NCBI GenBank assembly: GCA_963764625.1
Contig: CAVXTH010000009.1
Span: 544,001-608,000 of the forward strand
Direction of reading: 5' to 3'
DNA: 64,000 nucleotides
Origin: Candidatus Krumholzibacteriota bacterium
GTDB taxonomy: Bacteria; Krumholzibacteriota; Krumholzibacteriia; JAJRXK01
In this document: positions 2,298 to 10,096 of the stretch, one piece after another
Numbering within the stretch: the stretch's first letter is position 1
Layout of the letters: each line of letters starts with the position of its first letter
Translations under genes and position numbers: made by a program
Notes under the pieces: model-generated
What the model was told of the DNA's origin: nothing
The model's input: only the letters and a program-made list of their open reading frames with translations
Databases searched by the model: none

Positions 2298-2335
2298 CTC
2301 GCTCCTCGCCCGGCGCTAAAGCGGCTTGCCATGCG

Positions 2336-3853
2336 CTACTCGATTTCGAACTTCACGCCCTGCGCCAGAGGCATCTCACGGCTGTAATTGATGGTGCAGG
2401 TCTGCCGGCGCATGTAGAACTTCCAGCTGTCGCTGCCCGCTTCTCGCCCGCCACCGGTCTCTTTTTCACCGCCGAATGCTCCGCCGATCTCCGCTCCACT
2501 CGTGCCGATGTTGATGTTGGCGATGCCGCAGTCAGATCCCTCCGGACTCAGGAAGCTCTCCGCGGAGAGCACGTTGGTGGTGAACATCGAGGAAGACAGG
2601 CCTTGCCGCACGTCGTTCTGCATTCCGATGGCCTCCTCCACGGTGTCGAACTCGAAGAGGTACAGGATGGGCGCGAAGGTTTCCTCCTGGGCCACCTTGA
2701 GTCCGTGCTTGGCGGACACGATGGTGGGCTTGACGAAGTATCCCTTACGTTCGATGCGCTTTCCACCGGTGAGCACCTTGGCGCCGTCGGCTTGCGCCTT
2801 CTCGAGCGCCGCGGTCATGTCTTCGATGGCTGACTCGTCGATCAATGGACCCATGAGCGTGTCGGGATCGAGCGGGTCTCCGATGGGAATGCTCTCGTAG
2901 GCTTTCACCAATCGCTGGGTGAATTCTTCGGCGATGCTAGTTTGCAAGAACACCCGGCGGGTGGACGTGCAACGCTGCCCTGCGGTACCCACGGCGCCGA
3001 ACGCGATGGCGCGCAGAGCGAGGTCGAGGTCGGCGTCCTCGGTGACGATGATCGCGTTGTTGCCGCCCAGCTCCAACAGGCTGCGGCCCAGTCGTTTTCC
3101 CACCGCTTCGCCGATTCTCCGCCCCATGCGGCAGCTCCCGGTGGCGCTGATGAGCGGGATCCGGGGGTCGTTGATGAGCTTCTCACCGACCGCCGAGCCG
3201 CGTCCCACGCAGAGATTGAAGACGCCGCGCACATCGTTCTTCTTCATGACCCGGTCGCAGATTTGCTGGATCGCAATGGCGCACAAAGGGGTCTTGCTCG
3301 AGGGCTTCCAGATCATGGTATCGCCGCAAACCGCCGCGATCATCGCGTTCCAGGCCCAGACCGCCATGGGGAAGTTGAAGGCGGTCACGATGCCGATGAC
3401 TCCCAGAGGATGCCACTGCTCGTACATCCGGTGGCGTGCCCGTTCGCTGTGCATGCTCAGCCCATAGAGTTGACGGGAGAGGCCCACCGCGAAGTCCGCG
3501 ATGTCGATCGCTTCCTGTACTTCGCCTTCACCTTCGCTGAGAATTTTTCCCATTTCGAACGCGATGAGTTTGCCGAGCGGACGCTTGTATTTGCGCAGCT
3601 CCTCCCCGAGCTGACGCACGATCTCGCCGCGCTGGGGAGCGGGAACCATTCGCCAGCTGAGAAATCGTTCCTGCGCCGCCGCCACGACTGCTTCATAGTC
3701 GTTGTCATCGCCTTGAAGGACTTTACCCACCGGCTCTTCGCTGGTGGGGGAGTAGCTCGTGAGTTCGCCGCCGCCGGGATGTTCGATCCAGCCCTTTCCG
3801 TACACTCCCGAGTTCACTCCGGAAAGACCCAACTCTTTGAGAAAATCACGCAT
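2336..3853 (-). CDS. Aldehyde dehydrogenase family 7 (alpha-aminoadipate semialdehyde / piperideine-6-carboxylate dehydrogenase-like)
   Basis: AFNFP, LELGGNNA, GTAGQRCT, EETFAP, GAEIGGAFGGEKETGGGRE and C-terminal PLAQG. Start taken at ATG 3853. Confidence 0.93.
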   Translation of the reverse strand: MRDFLKELGLSGVNSGVYGKGWIEHPGGGELTSYSPTSEEPVGKVLQGDDNDYEAVVAAAQERFLSWRMVPAPQRGEIVRQLGEELRKYKRPLGKLIAFEMGKILSEGEGEVQEAIDIADFAVGLSRQLYGLSMHSERARHRMYEQWHPLGVIGIVTAFNFPMAVWAWNAMIAAVCGDTMIWKPSSKTPLCAIAIQQICDRVMKKNDVRGVFNLCVGRGSAVGEKLINDPRIPLISATGSCRMGRRIGEAVGKRLGRSLLELGGNNAIIVTEDADLDLALRAIAFGAVGTAGQRCTSTRRVFLQTSIAEEFTQRLVKAYESIPIGDPLDPDTLMGPLIDESAIEDMTAALEKAQADGAKVLTGGKRIERKGYFVKPTIVSAKHGLKVAQEETFAPILYLFEFDTVEEAIGMQNDVRQGLSSSMFTTNVLSAESFLSPEGSDCGIANINIGTSGAEIGGAFGGEKETGGGREAGSDSWKFYMRRQTCTINYSREMPLAQGVKFEIE

Positions 3854-3917
3854 CGGAGGATTCCCCTGCAATCAAGAGACAAAAAGATTCGGACCGGATC
3901 GCGAATGTCCGGCGGCC

Positions 3918-3945
3918 AAGATAGCACACGATTCGATGCTGGCAA
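3918..3945 (-). promoter_or_regulatory. Putative sigma-70 promoter of the ALDH7 gene
   Basis: Minus strand reads TTGCCA-16 nt-TATCTT with an extended -10 TG. Confidence 0.5.
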
Positions 3946-3956
3946 AAGAGTGCAGG

Positions 3957-3996
3957 AAAAGAGCGCGGCCCAACCCCGGGAGGTGGGTTGGGCCGC
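3957..3996 (-). terminator. Rho-independent terminator
   Basis: Perfect 12-bp stem GCGGCCCAACCC/GGGTTGGGCCGC with 8-nt loop, followed by GCTCTTTT on the minus strand. Confidence 0.75.
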
Positions 3997-4262
3997 AGCT
4001 TGTGCACCCGCGAGTCACGGCAGCTCACGGACGCTCGGGAGTTGAACTCGGGGCCCCCGGGCCGACGGCGGCGATTGGCGCTTAGAGCGTCGCCCCCGTT
4101 GGGAGTAAGGAGGTACCAGCCGAGTTTCACCCCAGGTTCCAGGGGCGGTTGCTCAGGCCGTTCGCCGAATCCTCCGGATCGAGGGCCCCGCACCCCACCC
4201 GCCTCGACGGAGGGGGTGAATGCGTGACGTCTTGCGCCCGACGCAGGCGCTTTCTCTCACGA
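3957..4262 (-). ncRNA. Candidate ~300-nt structured non-coding RNA, family not recognised
   Basis: Lies in a 620-nt intergenic gap with no credible ORF. Has a chain of hairpins, a 3' terminator, a near-consensus sigma-54 site at 4273-4290 and ACCTCCTTA (anti-SD) at 4114-4106. Confidence 0.45.
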
Positions 4263-4474
4263 CTTGGGTTACAGCAAGGAGCGTGCGCAAGAACGGATCC
4301 CGGTCGGCTTGGGGCAGTGGGAGGGATCAAGAGGTGTCAGATGGTGGTTCAGGTAGCCGCCGCGTCCTTTCGCGACGACTTCTATCCTCATTTTTCTCAC
4401 GCATCCTCAGGGTGGAGTGGGCGAGGGAGAGATGCTCTGCTTATTCTCTGCTCGTCTCTCCCCCATGAGAAAGC

Positions 4475-6661
4475 ATGCGAGCCCATCCGGGAACCCTGAT
4501 CATCCCCGTCCTTCTCTTGCTTGCCCCCATGGGATCCAATGGGGAAGAACGAAACCAGGCCTCGCCGCATCCGGGAGAAGTCATGCAAATTGATGGTGCG
4601 AGCCACCGGCACACCAACCACTTGATCCACGAGCAGAGTCCCTACCTCTTGCAACATGCACACAATCCAGTGGACTGGTACCCATGGTGCAAAGAGGCAT
4701 TGAGACGCGCGCGCGAGGAAAACAAGCCCATCTTTTTGTCCATCGGCTATTCCACCTGCCATTGGTGCCACGTCATGGAGCGCGAGTCCTTCGAGAACGA
4801 GGCGATCGCAGCGCTCATGAACGAATACTTCATCTGCATCAAAGTGGATCGCGAAGAGCGCCCCGATCTGGACGAAATCTACATGGCCGCGGTTCAGGGC
4901 ATGACGGGTCAGGGCGGATGGCCGATGAGCGTCTTTCTCACCCCACAGCTCAAGCCCTTCTTTGGCGGCACTTACTTTCCGCCCGAGGATCGTTTTGGCC
5001 GCCCCGGTTTCAAAAGCGTCCTTTTGCAGATTCACGAATTGTGGGGCCAGGAGCACGCACGCATCCTGAGTGCGGCGGAGCAAATCTCCAACCGCCTGGG
5101 GCAGTTGGAGCTCGTGGAGAGCGCCGCGGGTGAACTCGATGCGATGCCGGTGCAGACCCTCTACGAGCAGATCTCCACTTCCTTCGATCCTGAGAACGGA
5201 GGCTGGGGAGGTGCACCGAAATTTCCCCGCGGTGATTACGGCTCGCTCTGTCTGCGCTGGTTTCGCAAGAGCGGCGATAAGCACGCGCTCACCATGGCCT
5301 TGTCCACCCTGGAGCACATGGCCGATGGAGGCATCTACGATCAATTGGGAGGCGGTTTCGCGCGCTACAGCACGGACCCGAGTTGGTTGGTCCCCCATTT
5401 CGAGAAGATGCTCTATGATAACGCCCAGCTCGTCTTTCACTACCTGGAGGCCTACCAGCTCACCGGTGAAGAACGCTATGCGGAAATCGCGGGTGGAACG
5501 CTCGACTACGTTTTGAGAGAGATGACCGATCCCCGGGGCGGGTTCTACAGCGCCGAGGACGCAGACAGCGAGGGCGAAGAAGGGAAGTTTTACGTCTGGG
5601 ACGCCGCCGAAGTCGAGCGGGTGCTTCCCTCCAAACTCCTGGCGCCCTTCCGTCTGGCCTACGGGCTCAGCGAGCAGGGCAACTGGGAAGGCAGCAACAT
5701 TCTCCATCGCGCGATGGGCGACCCGGAGGTGGCTGCGGCACTGAAGCTCCCGGTGCTGGCGGTGCGAGAGGCACTTGAGAAGGCCAGGCAGGTCCTCCTC
5801 TCGCTTCGCGCCAAGAGAACTCGCCCCGCCCTCGACGACAAGGTATTGGCTGCCTGGAACGGACTGATGATTCAGACGATGGCGCGCGCGAGCGTGGTTC
5901 TGAAGGAGCCGCGTTACCTCGGGGCGGCCGAGAAAGCGGCGGACTTCATCCTGAACGATATGATGGCGGAGGGAAAACTCCAGCGGCGTTGGCGCGAAGG
6001 CCGGGCCGGCATCGACGCCTACGCCGAAGATTACGCCATGCTCGTCGGCGGGCTCCTGGAGTTGTACGAGTGCAGTTTTCAGCCACGCTTCTTCGCCGCC
6101 GCCGTGAACCTTCATCGAACGATGATGAAAGAGTTCGCCGACGAGAAAGATGGCGCGCTCTTCAATACCCGCGCCGGCGAGAGTGAGCTGCTGGTGCGGG
6201 TCAAGGTGGGTTACGACGGAGCGACACCCACCGCGAATAGCGTCGCTGCCTCCAACATGCTGTCGCTGTATGAACTCACCGGCGAAGACGAGTACGCCCG
6301 CCAACTCGAGCAAATTCTGCACGCCTTCTGGGGAGCTCTCTCGACTCGACCGGCGACGATGACCCGAATGGTTCTGGTTTTGGATGCGTACTTGGGTGAC
6401 CGCACCGAATTGGTATTGGCAGGCAGGCTGAAGGAAGTTCTGCCGCTGCTTCAAGAAGCTCGCGCAAGCTACAACCCGGACCTCTTCATCTCCCACGCCT
6501 CGCCCGACAGAAACAGCGAGGATCTCCTGCCGGCGCTCGCGGGGAGAGTGAGTCTAGACGGAGCAACGGCCTATGTCTGTCGCGCCTTCAGCTGCCAGCA
6601 GCCCACGCGCGATCCAGCCACCATGCTCAAGGAGTTGGGCGGCACCCGCTATTCCCCTTGA
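4475..6661 (+). CDS. Thioredoxin domain-containing protein (YyaL/SSP411, DUF255 + alpha/alpha barrel)
   Basis: [65 protein letters not shown]. Confidence 0.95.
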
Positions 6662-6747
6662 GGAATGGCGGGCTTCCCCGTTCTTGCTCGAAGCAGTCAT
6701 GGAGGTTAGGCTTGCGGCTCCACCTTCAAACTCCGAGGTGCATCTCG

Positions 6748-7857
6748 ATGAATTCACCCCTCTTGAGGACCGTTCGCGCCGTGATCCCGCTCTTCGCCGT
6801 GGCCCTCTCGTTCACGACCGGCTCGTGGGCGCAAGAGTCGCCTCGCTACGATGCTTCGCTGATGCGGGTACGCATGCTCACGCAGAATCCGGGGCCCTAT
6901 TCCACCTGGGACAACGCAGAGGCCTACTTCTCTCCGGACGGGAAGAAGCTCGTCTTCCAGTCCAGCCGGGATGGACGGGCCTGCGACGCCATCTACACCA
7001 TGGACGCGAGCGGGGCAGGGGTGAAGATGGTGACCTCAGGAGAAGGACGCTGCACCTGCGCGTTCTATTCCCCCGACATGAAGTTGATCGTGTACGCCAG
7101 CACAGTACTCACCAGCAAAGATTGTCCTCCGCGTCCCTCGATGGCGCATGGCTACACCTGGCCCATCTATCCCTCCTACGAGATCTTCCGCGTCCCGGTG
7201 GGTGGAGGCCAACGCGAGCAGCTGACCGACAGTCCCGGCTACGACGCGGAGGCGATCTACCGGCCCGACGGCAAGAAGATTCTCTTCACCAGCATGCGGG
7301 ATGGAGACCTCGACCTGTATGACATGAACCCCGACGGCAGCGGCGTGCGGCGCTTGACCTCGACTCCCGGCTACGACGGAGGGGCGTTCTATACCGCCGA
7401 CAGCCAGCACATCGTGTTTCGCGCGCGCCACCCCGAGGGTGAGGAGCTGAAGGATTACCAGGAGCTGCTGCAGAAGGGCTTGATTCGCCCCAGTCGACTC
7501 GATCTCTTCGTGATGGACAAGGATGGCGAGAATCCACGCCGTATCACCCACTCGGGCGACGACGGCGCCACGAATTGGGCGCCGTACCCGCACCCCGACG
7601 GCAAACGCATCGTTTTCGCCAGCAACCGGGATGATTTTGACCAGACCGTGCCGGGACAGTACGGCTACAATTTCGAGCTCTATCTCATCGGGATGGATGG
7701 CCAGGGGCTCCGCCGCCTCACTTTCAACCGGAACTTCGATGGCTTCCCCATGTTCTCCGCGGATGGCTCGCACCTGGTCTGGTGTGGAAACGTGATCGAC
7801 GCCCGTCCCCACGACACGGACGTCTTGATCGGCGATTGGAGCGAAAGTGGGCGATAA
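6748..7857 (+). CDS. Secreted TolB-like PD40 beta-propeller protein
   Basis: ATG 6748 after GAGGTG; signal peptide; repeated AEAYFSPDGKK, GYDAEA, GYDGGAF, FDGFPMFS blades. Confidence 0.9.
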   Translation: MNSPLLRTVRAVIPLFAVALSFTTGSWAQESPRYDASLMRVRMLTQNPGPYSTWDNAEAYFSPDGKKLVFQSSRDGRACDAIYTMDASGAGVKMVTSGEGRCTCAFYSPDMKLIVYASTVLTSKDCPPRPSMAHGYTWPIYPSYEIFRVPVGGGQREQLTDSPGYDAEAIYRPDGKKILFTSMRDGDLDLYDMNPDGSGVRRLTSTPGYDGGAFYTADSQHIVFRARHPEGEELKDYQELLQKGLIRPSRLDLFVMDKDGENPRRITHSGDDGATNWAPYPHPDGKRIVFASNRDDFDQTVPGQYGYNFELYLIGMDGQGLRRLTFNRNFDGFPMFSADGSHLVWCGNVIDARPHDTDVLIGDWSESGR

Positions 7858-7887: not shown

Positions 7888-7902
7888 CGGCACGGAGATT
7901 GC
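7888..7902 (+). promoter_or_regulatory. Sigma-54 (-24/-12) promoter upstream of the MDR pair
   Basis: CGGCAC-GGAGA-TTGC: GG-N10-GC, one mismatch to TGGCAC-N5-TTGC. Confidence 0.7.
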
Positions 7903-8012
7903 CTCTAAGCTGACGGAATCCATACCCTGACCGGCAATTACACCACCGGTCGCTCCATCTCTCAGTGCCCTACTCTCGATCGGGGAATCGCGTGGACGAG
8001 GAGCAGACTCCC

Positions 8013-9089
8013 ATGGGCTCGATCCAGCGCTCGGTCAAGAGCACGCGCCTTCGTACGATGCGGGCGCTGGTTCTGGACAAAGTGCCCCAACTGGCCACGG
8101 TGAGCCGCCCGCGCGCGGCGGAGGGAGAAGTCCTGGTCCGGGTGCGCGCGTGCGGGATTGCCAGGAGTGATCTGCAGATGGTTCGTGGCATCCGAGAGAC
8201 GGGTCGCGAGCGCGTCATTCTGGGGCACGAGTTCGTGGGGGAAGTAGTAGAGGCGACGACTCCCTCCGGTGAAGAGTGGATCGGCCGTCGCGTGGTAGCC
8301 AATCTGAACGCCGGTTGCACGCGCTGTCTGCCCTGCCGGGACGCAAAGCCCTGGTTGTGCGAACTAACCCGTGAACGTGCTCTGGGCATGGGAATCACCG
8401 ATGGAGCCCTGGCCGAGTGGGTGACGGTCTCCGAGCGGGCCCTGGTCGAAGTCCCCGAAGGGGTGGACGACGAAGAGGCAATTTTCGCTCATCCTCTGGC
8501 CAGCGCGCTGCAAGCGGCGTCGCTGTTGGAAGGTCCGCCGCCCCAGCGGGTCCTGGTGGTGGGCGACGGCAACCTGGGGCTCTTGACCACCCTGGCTCTC
8601 CACGCCGCCGGGCACACGGTGAGCGTGTTGGGACGGCACATGTCGCGCCGGGAGCTCTTGTGGCGCAGCGGAATCTCCTTCAGTGGGGTCGGAGGGGACG
8701 GCGACGAATCGAAGGATCCGGTCTCGGGCGCGAAGCTCGTTACCGAGTCGCACGGAATGGTCTACGACTGTTCGGGACACCCTTCGGGCTTCGACCTCGC
8801 GGTCGCCGCCACGCGACCCCGCGGTCGCATCGTTCTCTTGAGCCGCTTCGCGTCCAGTCAAGGCTTCGACCTCCGCTTCCTCACCGAGAAGGAGATCGAC
8901 TTGATCGGCGTGAACGGAGGGAATTTGGAGGACAGCCTGGCCTACCTGCAGCGCAAGCGCCTCGACGTTCTTCCCCTCGTCGCGGGGAGCTATCCCATGC
9001 AGGAGGCCATGGCCGCGCTCGAGAAGGCGAACACGCGCGGCTCGCTCAAGGTCCTGGTTCGCAATGCCATCGGAGGAGGCGTGGGATGA
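8013..9089 (+). CDS. Zinc-binding alcohol dehydrogenase (MDR) family protein, catalytic Cys missing
   Basis: ILGHEFVG, structural-Zn CTRCLPC-x7-C, Rossmann VVGDGNLG. GIARSD stands where GICxxD is expected. ATG 8013 follows GAGGAG; exact start uncertain. Confidence 0.85.
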   Translation: MGSIQRSVKSTRLRTMRALVLDKVPQLATVSRPRAAEGEVLVRVRACGIARSDLQMVRGIRETGRERVILGHEFVGEVVEATTPSGEEWIGRRVVANLNAGCTRCLPCRDAKPWLCELTRERALGMGITDGALAEWVTVSERALVEVPEGVDDEEAIFAHPLASALQAASLLEGPPPQRVLVVGDGNLGLLTTLALHAAGHTVSVLGRHMSRRELLWRSGISFSGVGGDGDESKDPVSGAKLVTESHGMVYDCSGHPSGFDLAVAATRPRGRIVLLSRFASSQGFDLRFLTEKEIDLIGVNGGNLEDSLAYLQRKRLDVLPLVAGSYPMQEAMAALEKANTRGSLKVLVRNAIGGGVG

Positions 9090-10096
9090 AAACTCTTCTG
9101 ATGGACAGAGAACTGCTGCTCACCGACATGACCGAACCCGGACTCACCGAGGGAAGCCTGAGGATCAAGGTTCTCATGAGCGCCATCACGGGACTAGACG
9201 TCGACGTCGCGACCGGCCGCCGTCCCTATACCGGCATTCCCGGAACCTGTTTCGTGGGAAGGGTGGAGGAAAGTCGCGGCAACGAAGGCCGCGCCCTGGT
9301 GGGATCGCGGGTGGTGGGTCGATCGATCTACGGCTGTGGAATGTGCGATGCGTGTCGCCTCGGTCACGATGAACGCTGTCGAGATCGCGTACGCCCCGGG
9401 CTCTTCGGAGCGGCTGGGGGACAGGCGGAGTACATTCACTTGCCGACGCGGGCGGTGGCGGTCGTGCCGCACGGCGTGAAGGACGAAGCCGCGGTGCTTT
9501 CTCCTCTCATTGCGGCCATCTACGAATCGCTGAGCCGCGGGCAACTTCCCCGCTGGACGAACGTGCTCGTGGTGGGGGACGGGGGCATCGGCATGCTGGC
9601 TGCGCTCTCGCTCGCCTCGGCCGGATATACGGTGACGCTTCGCGGCAAGCACGGTGACCGCTTCGATCTCATCCGCCGCCACGGTATCCATTTCAATCTG
9701 GCGACCGACGAAGATGAAATGAATGGAATCCGCCCGGGCCGCTTCGGCCCCGCGCTCGCCAGCTACCCCTTCATCTTTGAGGCCACCGGCCGCTCAGGGG
9801 GCTGGATGGCGGCCACCCACCTGGTCTGCCCCGGGGGAACCATTTTCGAGGTGAGCTCCTGCCACGACGGGGTGCCGCGCTCCCTGACTCTGGTTCTGGA
9901 CAAGAGCATTCGCGTGCTGGGTCTACGTCAGGGTCCCCTGGAACCGATTCTCAGCATTCTCGCGGCGGAACTCTTCGATCCCGTCGAGGTGGTGAGCCAC
10001 ATCTATCCCCTCGAGGAAGCGGTGCAGGCCTACTCGAAGGTCAGCGATCAGCACGAACGTCTCGCGCTGGTGAGAATCTCCTCCCGGGAGAACTAG
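9086..10096 (+). CDS. Second MDR-family paralogue, catalytic Zn site degenerate
   Basis: ATGA overlap with the previous gene; CGMCDAC-x7-C and VVGDGGIG retained; AITGLD and GTCFVG replace GICxxD and GHExxG. Confidence 0.85.
   Translation: MKTLLMDRELLLTDMTEPGLTEGSLRIKVLMSAITGLDVDVATGRRPYTGIPGTCFVGRVEESRGNEGRALVGSRVVGRSIYGCGMCDACRLGHDERCRDRVRPGLFGAAGGQAEYIHLPTRAVAVVPHGVKDEAAVLSPLIAAIYESLSRGQLPRWTNVLVVGDGGIGMLAALSLASAGYTVTLRGKHGDRFDLIRRHGIHFNLATDEDEMNGIRPGRFGPALASYPFIFEATGRSGGWMAATHLVCPGGTIFEVSSCHDGVPRSLTLVLDKSIRVLGLRQGPLEPILSILAAELFDPVEVVSHIYPLEEAVQAYSKVSDQHERLALVRISSREN

Follow-up and report, generated by a model that had tools for sequence, protein, structure and literature searches.

A probable new structured RNA with conserved C-rich loops between divergent YyaL-like and ALDH7 genes of a Krumholzibacteriota bacterium

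The 64,000 nucleotides of Candidatus Krumholzibacteriota DNA analysed here (the window, C9:544001-608000 of a 3.57-Mb metagenome-assembled genome (MAG) of 62% G+C, labelled G000) contain a gap of 621 nt between the ATG of an ALDH7 gene (3853) and that of a divergent YyaL-like gene (4475), and the question raised by this locus is what the gap encodes. An original prediction, made from the letters of the DNA, had placed into this gap of ~620 nt a discrete small RNA (sRNA) on the minus strand which carries an exact anti-Shine-Dalgarno (anti-SD) 9-mer, is transcribed from a near-perfect sigma-54 promoter and belongs to no recognised family. The size of the gap and the minus-strand coordinates of every motif quoted in its favour agree with the sequence. 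Our analysis indicates that the gap very probably harbours a real, new, lineage-restricted, structured and functional RNA. Its best single explanation is a stand-alone base-pairing sRNA with exposed C-rich loops, to which we assign a probability of about one half. Least well supported are two features prominent in the prediction, namely the exact anti-SD seed and the near-perfect sigma-54 promoter.

A blastn search of the stretch against 60 relatives detected the element with 80-90% identity over ~290 nt in G004, G001 and, in two copies, G002, which are three of the four further species known from its genus, and as a weak match in one other genus of the family (G005). In an alignment of the whole intergenic regions, conservation is limited to ~4254-3965 and the flanking intergenic sequence does not align. 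A covariance model built from the element alignment (R1) scores 342 bits against 3955-4271 on the minus strand of the window and 288-341 bits against the relatives; it finds the full element in the source genus only and recognises in G005 just the two 3' hairpins (51.6 bits). From metagenome contigs, a pattern scan contributed one more sequence of the second genus, L060 (55.6 bits), so that the counts given below refer to seven sequences from six species, namely G000, G002 (twice), G004, G001, G005 and L060. Two further scan matches (L063, L064) are duplicates of G002 and G001, and the seven remaining ones were discarded because they share just the hairpin imposed by the pattern and look like chance. 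Likewise, matches in G008 and G009 were rejected as they comprise the terminal hairpin only at ~20 bits, and a filter-free scan of 1500 bp on each side of the ALDH7 genes of these two genomes revealed no element. Among the 151 genomes and 72 genera of the class Krumholzibacteriia searched with R1, only 5 genomes and 2 genera gave matches, a narrow distribution which limits the general importance of the element. Its lack in G003 is uninformative since the whole locus is missing or unassembled there; neither an ALDH7 nor a YyaL-like gene was found with the queries used in this 93% complete genome. At every element-bearing locus the YyaL-element-ALDH7 synteny is retained, with the element co-oriented with ALDH7.

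The minus strand of 3950-4265 folds with a minimum free energy of -166.7 kcal/mol, compared with -144.5 +/- 6 kcal/mol for shuffled sequences (z -3.69; none of 100 shuffles as good), and RNAalifold applied to five sequences yields a consensus fold with 94 pairs. The element and its parts are listed in the following.

3957-4262, minus strand: candidate non-coding RNA of ~305 nt, matched by R1, with presumed ends
4234-4250, minus strand: hairpin P1 (GCGCC...GGCGC; helix 2, one pair changed on both sides), in the source-genus version only
4191-4218, minus strand: hairpin P2 (CACCCCCUCCG-UCGA-GGCGGGUGGGGUG; helix 4), in the source genus only
4049-4190, minus strand: central multi-helix domain, the most conserved part of the element
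4190-4180 with 4060-4049, minus strand: closing helix of the central domain
4175-4170 (GGAGGA) with 4115-4109 (UACCUCC), minus strand: helix 6 of the consensus fold
Remainder of the central domain, minus strand: helix 7, a variable apical hairpin and a right arm starting with CGGGGGCGA
4106-4114, minus strand: anti-SD 9-mer ACCUCCUUA (ACCTCCTTA in DNA), within CGGCUGGUACCUCCUUACU (4121-4103)
4004-4034, minus strand: hairpin (helix 11) with the invariant loop UGCCGUGA (4022-4015)
3964-3997, minus strand: terminal terminator-like hairpin (helix 12) with the loop CCUCCCG (3983-3977), then CUCUUUUCC (3963-3955)

Compensatory changes support the peripheral part of this fold. In the seven-sequence model alignment 95.7% of the cells are paired, against 39-48% when the partners are slid by 1-3 columns, and 16 pairs are changed on both sides as compared with 7.9 +/- 1.8 in column shuffles, none of 500 reaching 16. 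The covariation is located in helices 1-4 and above all in helices 11 and 12. Helix 4 (P2) has 11 pairs with all cells paired and, in G004 and G001, a compensatory replacement of C-G by U-A; helix 11 also has 11 pairs, two of them changed on both sides and four on one side; and in helix 12 seven pairs have both partners changed. Both loops on these covarying stems, UGCCGUGA and CCUCCCG, are unchanged in all seven sequences. The minus strand shows 35 G-U cells and 20 non-pairs, the plus strand 3 and 52, a comparison somewhat biased towards the minus strand on which the structure was derived. Altogether, the proposal of a discrete structured non-coding element on the minus strand stood up to the comparison with relatives, to the shuffles and to the search for compensatory changes. 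The forecast chain of hairpins lies where it had been placed, with the exception of the long-range AACTCGG/CCGAGTT pairing, which is not kept in G002 (CCGAACA) and in place of which the consensus fold pairs CUCGGCUG with CGGCCUGAG. The terminal hairpin, described before as a 12-bp terminator, indeed exists, covaries and comprises 13 pairs (10 of them G-C) followed by CTCTTTTCC, but a U-rich tail is present in just four of the six species (G000, G002, G005, L060).

The version of the second genus (G005, L060) is shorter (~225 nt) and lacks the hairpins P1 and P2. It retains the same upstream promoter-like motif, the right arm beginning with CGGGGGCGA and both 3' hairpins. Its closing helix, GAGAUCCC.GGAC/GUCCGGGAUCUC, is long and differs strongly in sequence, and a helix of SD-like and anti-SD-like strands, GAUGAGG/CCUCAUC, stands where GGAGGU/ACCUCC is found in the source genus. 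One single-sequence and one two-sequence fold suggest that both genera share the same topology.

The idea that the gap holds no functional RNA, the letters being conserved as promoter signals in the DNA of the divergent YyaL and ALDH7 genes or because they encode a short protein, is highly improbable on these data. It could appeal to the position between two divergent genes and to the long open frames to be expected in a GC-rich genome, plus-strand frames of 105-106 codons being open in three of five sequences. However, the indels within the core (1, 1, 1 and 2 nt) break the frame and thus rule out a conserved open reading frame (ORF), and no Pfam family was found for the three ORFs tested in the gap, so that protein coding, which the earlier author had named as a possible undoing of the RNA, was rejected. 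The compensatory changes and the strand-specific G-U pairs likewise speak for RNA, and related genera manage with a YyaL-ALDH7 spacer of ~130-200 nt without the element. A repeat or mobile element was also considered and rejected; the element is single-copy in its own genome and has no terminal repeats apart from the internal helices.

Is the RNA made? A search of sequencing runs returned 21 runs, two of which are RNA libraries from different studies (X10 and X20). The contig from X10 is 196 nt long, falls entirely within 4039-4234 and shows 2 differences; that from X20 is 163 nt long and aligns to 4046-4198 over 152 nt, with 11 differences and 1 gap. The RNA is thus probably expressed. In neither library was a near-identical contig found on 2300-3900 or 4320-5500, an absence which carries no weight because the runs were found via the element itself.

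Comparison with known RNA families agrees with the claim that the family could not be recognised. In the entire 64 kb of the window not a single Rfam family attains its gathering score, and a permissive scan of the element gave only sub-threshold matches, all on the terminal hairpin; the best scores were 23.1 bits for Pxr (gathering score 80), 25.3 for 6C (47) and 14 for CcsR1 (65.3). ARAGORN detected no tRNA or tmRNA. The housekeeping candidates 6S RNA, RNase P RNA, tmRNA and signal recognition particle (SRP) RNA were rejected, all four occurring elsewhere in the genome above the cut-offs. The actinobacterial 6C RNA (RF01066) resembles the element in its GC-rich host and its conserved C-rich loop, here CCUCCCG on a covarying stem, but it comes from another phylum, is far shorter, lacks a large central domain and matches the terminal hairpin only. 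According to PMC6486639, 6C sRNA uses its C-rich loops to bind ribosome binding sites that are rich in G. The CcsR1-4 RNAs of Alphaproteobacteria (RF02791, sRNAs with the CCUCCUCCC motif) also have a C/U-rich anti-SD-like loop near the terminator. They are short RNAs that consist of repeated hairpins and are co-transcribed with the gene of a small protein; the element described here is single-copy. For Pxr of Myxococcus (RF01812), the likeness lies in the multi-hairpin intergenic layout and in a sigma-54-like promoter, predicted in both cases. Its description (PMC5568312) reports a multi-stem-loop intergenic sRNA of 108 nt with a predicted sigma-54 promoter, which adjoins the enhancer-binding regulator gene nla19, whereas no such regulator lies within 12 kb of our element and the -24 GG is missing. 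The element is larger than both 6C and Pxr, neither of which possesses anything comparable to its invariant multi-helix core. By analogy, it may work most like the C-rich-loop sRNAs and is laid out like Pxr; it belongs to neither family, all Rfam scores being far below threshold. A literature search on sRNAs that mimic the anti-SD revealed nothing equivalent among the matches listed.

The anti-SD 9-mer itself was verified at 4114-4106. It occurs once in the window, compared with 0.10 copies expected from shuffles, 10 of 100 of which contain at least one copy. The complementary plus-strand SD sequence is, as had been remarked, without a start codon, since neither ATG, GTG nor TTG follows GGAGG at a usable distance. 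The role of the 9-mer as a seed fared less well. The exact ACCUCCUUA is found in G000 only, one of the seven sequences, and the shorter ACCUCCU in five; the counterparts read ACCUCCUUG in G002, ACCUCCUCA in G004 and G001, and UUCCUCAUC in the second genus. Moreover, the consensus fold pairs ACCUCC with the internal GGAGG (helix 6), the second genus has a helix of other letters at the same place, and the C-rich strand could alternatively pair with a following GGGGG run. The anti-SD core is not obviously a free seed because of its predicted pairing to the internal GGAGG. As judged from its invariance in seven sequences, the CCUCCCG loop of the terminal hairpin would be the more convincing C-rich candidate seed.

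From these data the following scenario can be sketched for a stand-alone sRNA. Transcription would start near 4262 on the minus strand, directed by a promoter-like motif GYGCAC-N5-TTGCW, and would stop near 3957 with the conserved terminal hairpin, a short distance ahead of the ALDH7 promoter. The RNA may then act as a base-pairing regulator, probably of translation, whose most constrained single-stranded elements would be the loops UGCCGUGA and CCUCCCG. The latter might pair with G-rich SD regions in the manner of the C-rich-loop sRNAs 6C and CcsR. The central ACCUCC strand would be held by the internal GGAGG and might be exposed conditionally, and the neighbouring ALDH7 mRNA is a candidate target. 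The sequence features outside the RNA on which this scenario draws, and the two genes, are as follows.

4272-4288, minus strand: conserved bipartite promoter-like motif GCGCAC-N5-TTGCTG, overlapping TTGCGCACGCTCCTTGCT (4290-4273)
3918-3945, minus strand: putative ALDH7 promoter TTGCCA-16-TATCTT with a TG extension, a sigma-70-like consensus match
3854-3863, minus strand: ALDH7 initiation spacer GAAUCCUCCG, immediately 5' of the AUG at 3853
3853, minus strand: ATG of the ALDH7 gene, L-piperidine-6-carboxylate dehydrogenase (NF050084, 775 bits, cut-off 730)
4475, plus strand: ATG of the YyaL-like gene, DUF255/YyaL thioredoxin domain (PF03190, E 2e-79)

The upstream motif is conserved as GYGCAC-N5-(C)TTGC(T/A) with a variable N5 spacer in all six species and is positioned 15-25 nt ahead of the first helix in both genera. 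Its spacing corresponds to that of a sigma-54 promoter, in which the G of TTGC stands 10 bases after the second G of the GG doublet, and the -12 element TTGCT or TTGCA lies at this fixed distance in every species. What had been called a near-perfect sigma-54 promoter is therefore sound in spacing, -12 element and conservation, but not in the GG doublet, near-invariant in sigma-54 promoters. The inserted base at 4285-4288, for which an inspection of the reads had been advised, is no sequencing error because contigs from DNA runs cover these positions gap-free and the spacing is identical in the six species. The genome encodes RpoN (rpoN at C9:980674) and contains 23 canonical GGCAC-N5-TTGC(T/A) sites; six are intergenic on a crude ORF map and mostly well placed before genes. 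No protein with a Sigma54_activat domain is encoded among the nine neighbouring ORFs scanned (to window position ~13,000; within 12 kb), and the intergenic alignment displays no upstream repeat conserved across the genus. The sRNAs Qrr, GlmY and CrcZ depend on sigma-54; the element shares with them the bipartite spacing, the TTGCW -12 element and a host with rpoN, and differs in the absent GG and in the lack of a detected adjacent activator gene. An activator may, however, be encoded in another part of the genome. As the spacing, the -12 element and rpoN stand against the missing GG, we consider a dependence of the element on sigma-54 possible and rather doubtful.

Several observations weigh against the reading as a stand-alone sRNA. 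At the 5' side, the GG doublet is absent in six of six species, where a C or T replaces the first G (CGCAC or TGCAC), and no evident sigma-70 -10 element is present at the upstream motif. At the 3' side, the terminal hairpin of G004 and G001 is not followed by a U tract, which makes read-through towards ALDH7 possible. From the contigs of the RNA libraries neither the strand nor the ends of a transcript can be read, and DNA may be present in such libraries. Helices 5, 6, 7, 9 and 10 of the central part are invariant within the genus and thus without support from covariation; they are supported only by the folds of the second-genus version, one of a single sequence and one of two. The sequences available comprise just four species of one genus and two sequences of another. 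With respect to targets, CCUCC-type loops would fit most SD sequences and therefore define no targets. The RNA segment complementary to ALDH7 (see below) differs between species, and in G004 and G005 the longest complement to the ALDH7 start is 7 nt. The predicted RNA-ALDH7 duplex (-24.9 kcal/mol) is less stable than the background mean (-28.9 kcal/mol), and the fractions of shuffles as good in energy are 0.27, 0.05, 0.49, 0.14, 0.06 and 0.12. Since 85% of 400 background starts equal it, the ALDH7 start was rejected as an outstanding target by duplex energy.

The case for ALDH7 as a target is built on uninterrupted complementarity, the significance of which is mixed. In the RNA of G000, CGGAGGAUUC (4176-4167) is a perfect complement of the initiation spacer GAAUCCUCCG. 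Perfect complements of at least 10 nt between the RNA and the cognate ALDH7 start are found in three of the six species (G000, G002, L060) and one of 9 nt in a fourth, compared with a background of ~2-3% of 2581 start regions and 2.7% of ALDH7 coding windows for at least 10 nt, and of ~7-10% for at least 9 nt. Composition-matched shuffles reach the observed complement in 0 of 150, 0 of 150 and 1 of 150 cases in these three species, and non-cognate RNA-ALDH7 pairs at times score as high as cognate ones. A 15-mer, GCGCAAGACGTCACG, in the 5' part of the RNA (4237-4223, minus strand), unique in G000, recurs identically in the ALDH7 5' untranslated region (UTR) of G005 (L025:2735-2749, plus strand), just ahead of the SD and after a hairpin with a CACCUCC loop, but does not occur in G002, G004 and G001, which are closer relatives. 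The shared word points to a common ancestry of the RNA 5' part and the ALDH7 5' UTR, which could itself create complementarity. Taking these sequence comparisons together, we regard the ALDH7 mRNA as a possible, tentative target. The spacer between SD and AUG of ALDH7 is itself anti-SD-like in the RNA-bearing genus (CCUCCG, CUUCCG, CCUUCG; window 3853-3880, L021-L024) and could form a 4-bp hairpin with the SD, and four RNA-less genomes have unrelated ALDH7 spacers.

The proximity of ALDH7 also invites a different explanation, in which the element is a cis-acting leader, attenuator or riboswitch-like domain. A distal regulated promoter would then give rise to a long structured 5' region of the ALDH7 mRNA, and either the terminal hairpin would stop or pass transcription into the gene, perhaps in response to a metabolite of lysine breakdown, or strands of the element would pair with the ALDH7 start in cis. 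The adjacency and co-orientation in all six species, the invariant, aptamer-like multi-helix core, the missing U tract in G004 and G001, the enriched complementarity to the ALDH7 start region and the 15-nt word which links the G000 RNA to the G005 5' UTR by descent are all compatible with such a leader. However, a putative promoter lies between element and gene. Nine genomes with ALDH7 provide 10 loci, and each of these has its extended -10 box at a distance of ~65-100 nt ahead of the ALDH start, reading TGTGCTATC(T/G)T or nearly so (TGTGGTATCTT in G005, TATGCTATCCT in G006). The nine include four genomes without the RNA (G006-G009), in which the divergent YyaL-ALDH7 pair is kept and this promoter would serve ALDH7 without any element. 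The suggestion that ALDH7 has a promoter of its own downstream of the terminator (3945-3918) is thereby strengthened by a family-wide consensus match. As the promoter is kept in genomes with and without the RNA, the element looks like an insertion upstream of a pre-existing ALDH7 promoter. Furthermore, the sequence of the terminal loop is kept, as would rarely be the case in an expression platform. The core is set apart from the terminator by a stable hairpin of its own, no alternative anti-terminator pairing was seen, and Rfam contains no matching riboswitch family. A leader function is accordingly judged unlikely. Irrespective of this assignment, the -10 box (window 3918-3928; L053-L056), kept across four genera, is a rare clearly conserved promoter element in an uncultured family.

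The likeness of the central strand to the ribosome suggests yet another role, a protein- or ribosome-directed decoy or mimic of the 16S rRNA 3' end, whose internal SD/anti-SD-like helix and 16S-like tail would not pair with mRNAs but bind or titrate the 30S platform or a factor recognising this 3' end. CGGCUGGUACCUCCUUACU, to be read as CGGCUGG-U-ACCUCCUUACU, equals the 3' end of the 16S rRNA of the same genome, GGCUGGAUCACCUCCUUUCU, at 18 of 21 aligned positions (window 4103-4121, minus strand, versus L076 3040-3059). Its CGGCUG part forms the 3' strand of the helix just before the tail, as in 16S rRNA, the core is invariant, and a shared 7-mer anchored beside the anti-SD arose in 1314 of 200000 random trials, a test chosen post hoc. 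On the other hand, the likeness was likewise noticed post hoc. It is less pronounced in the second genus (CGGCU-UCCUCAUCC) and does not extend to the GAUCA of the 16S tail. With an apical loop that differs between species and a gene neighbourhood that indicates no partner protein, this role is improbable. Descent from an rRNA operon was rejected separately; short-word blastn against both loci of 16S rRNA and internal transcribed spacer gave scattered 8-11-mers, none collinear beyond the 21-nt tail.

A more daring version of the base-pairing sRNA would combine several of these features. The RNA might be a dedicated regulator of lysine catabolism with a copy of the ribosome's mRNA-binding tail at its centre, in which the internal GGAGG toggles among the 16S-like strand ACCUCCUU, the CCUCCCG loop and the CCUCC spacer of ALDH7, thereby coupling the sigma-54-like promoter to the masking or unmasking of ALDH7 translation. 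We consider this a long shot; if true, it would represent a switch by SD/anti-SD mimicry of a kind not described before. Independent of this speculation, a conserved RNA of ~300 nt with two invariant loops offers an entry point to post-transcriptional control in the uncultured phylum Krumholzibacteriota, for which a full-text literature search revealed no work on non-coding RNA among the matches listed, and it constitutes a candidate for a new Rfam family. If the link to ALDH7 holds, an RNA regulator would be tied to the catabolism of lysine or pipecolate.

Two observations concern the surroundings of the element. In G002 the whole YyaL-RNA-ALDH7 locus is present in two copies (L021 on G002:C8 and L022 on G002:C9), and the ALDH7 gene of the C9 copy displays only 51% overall identity and five in-frame TGA codons. 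Since this MAG has a contamination of 7%, the second locus may stem from a second strain or an assembly chimera rather than from a true duplication. In the window itself, a canonical sigma-54-type site, GGCACGGAGATTGC, is found at 7889-7902 on the plus strand. It is apparently intergenic and is located after a PD40-repeat gene (6658-7857) and before genes at 7970-8398 (minus strand) and 8417-10096 (plus strand).

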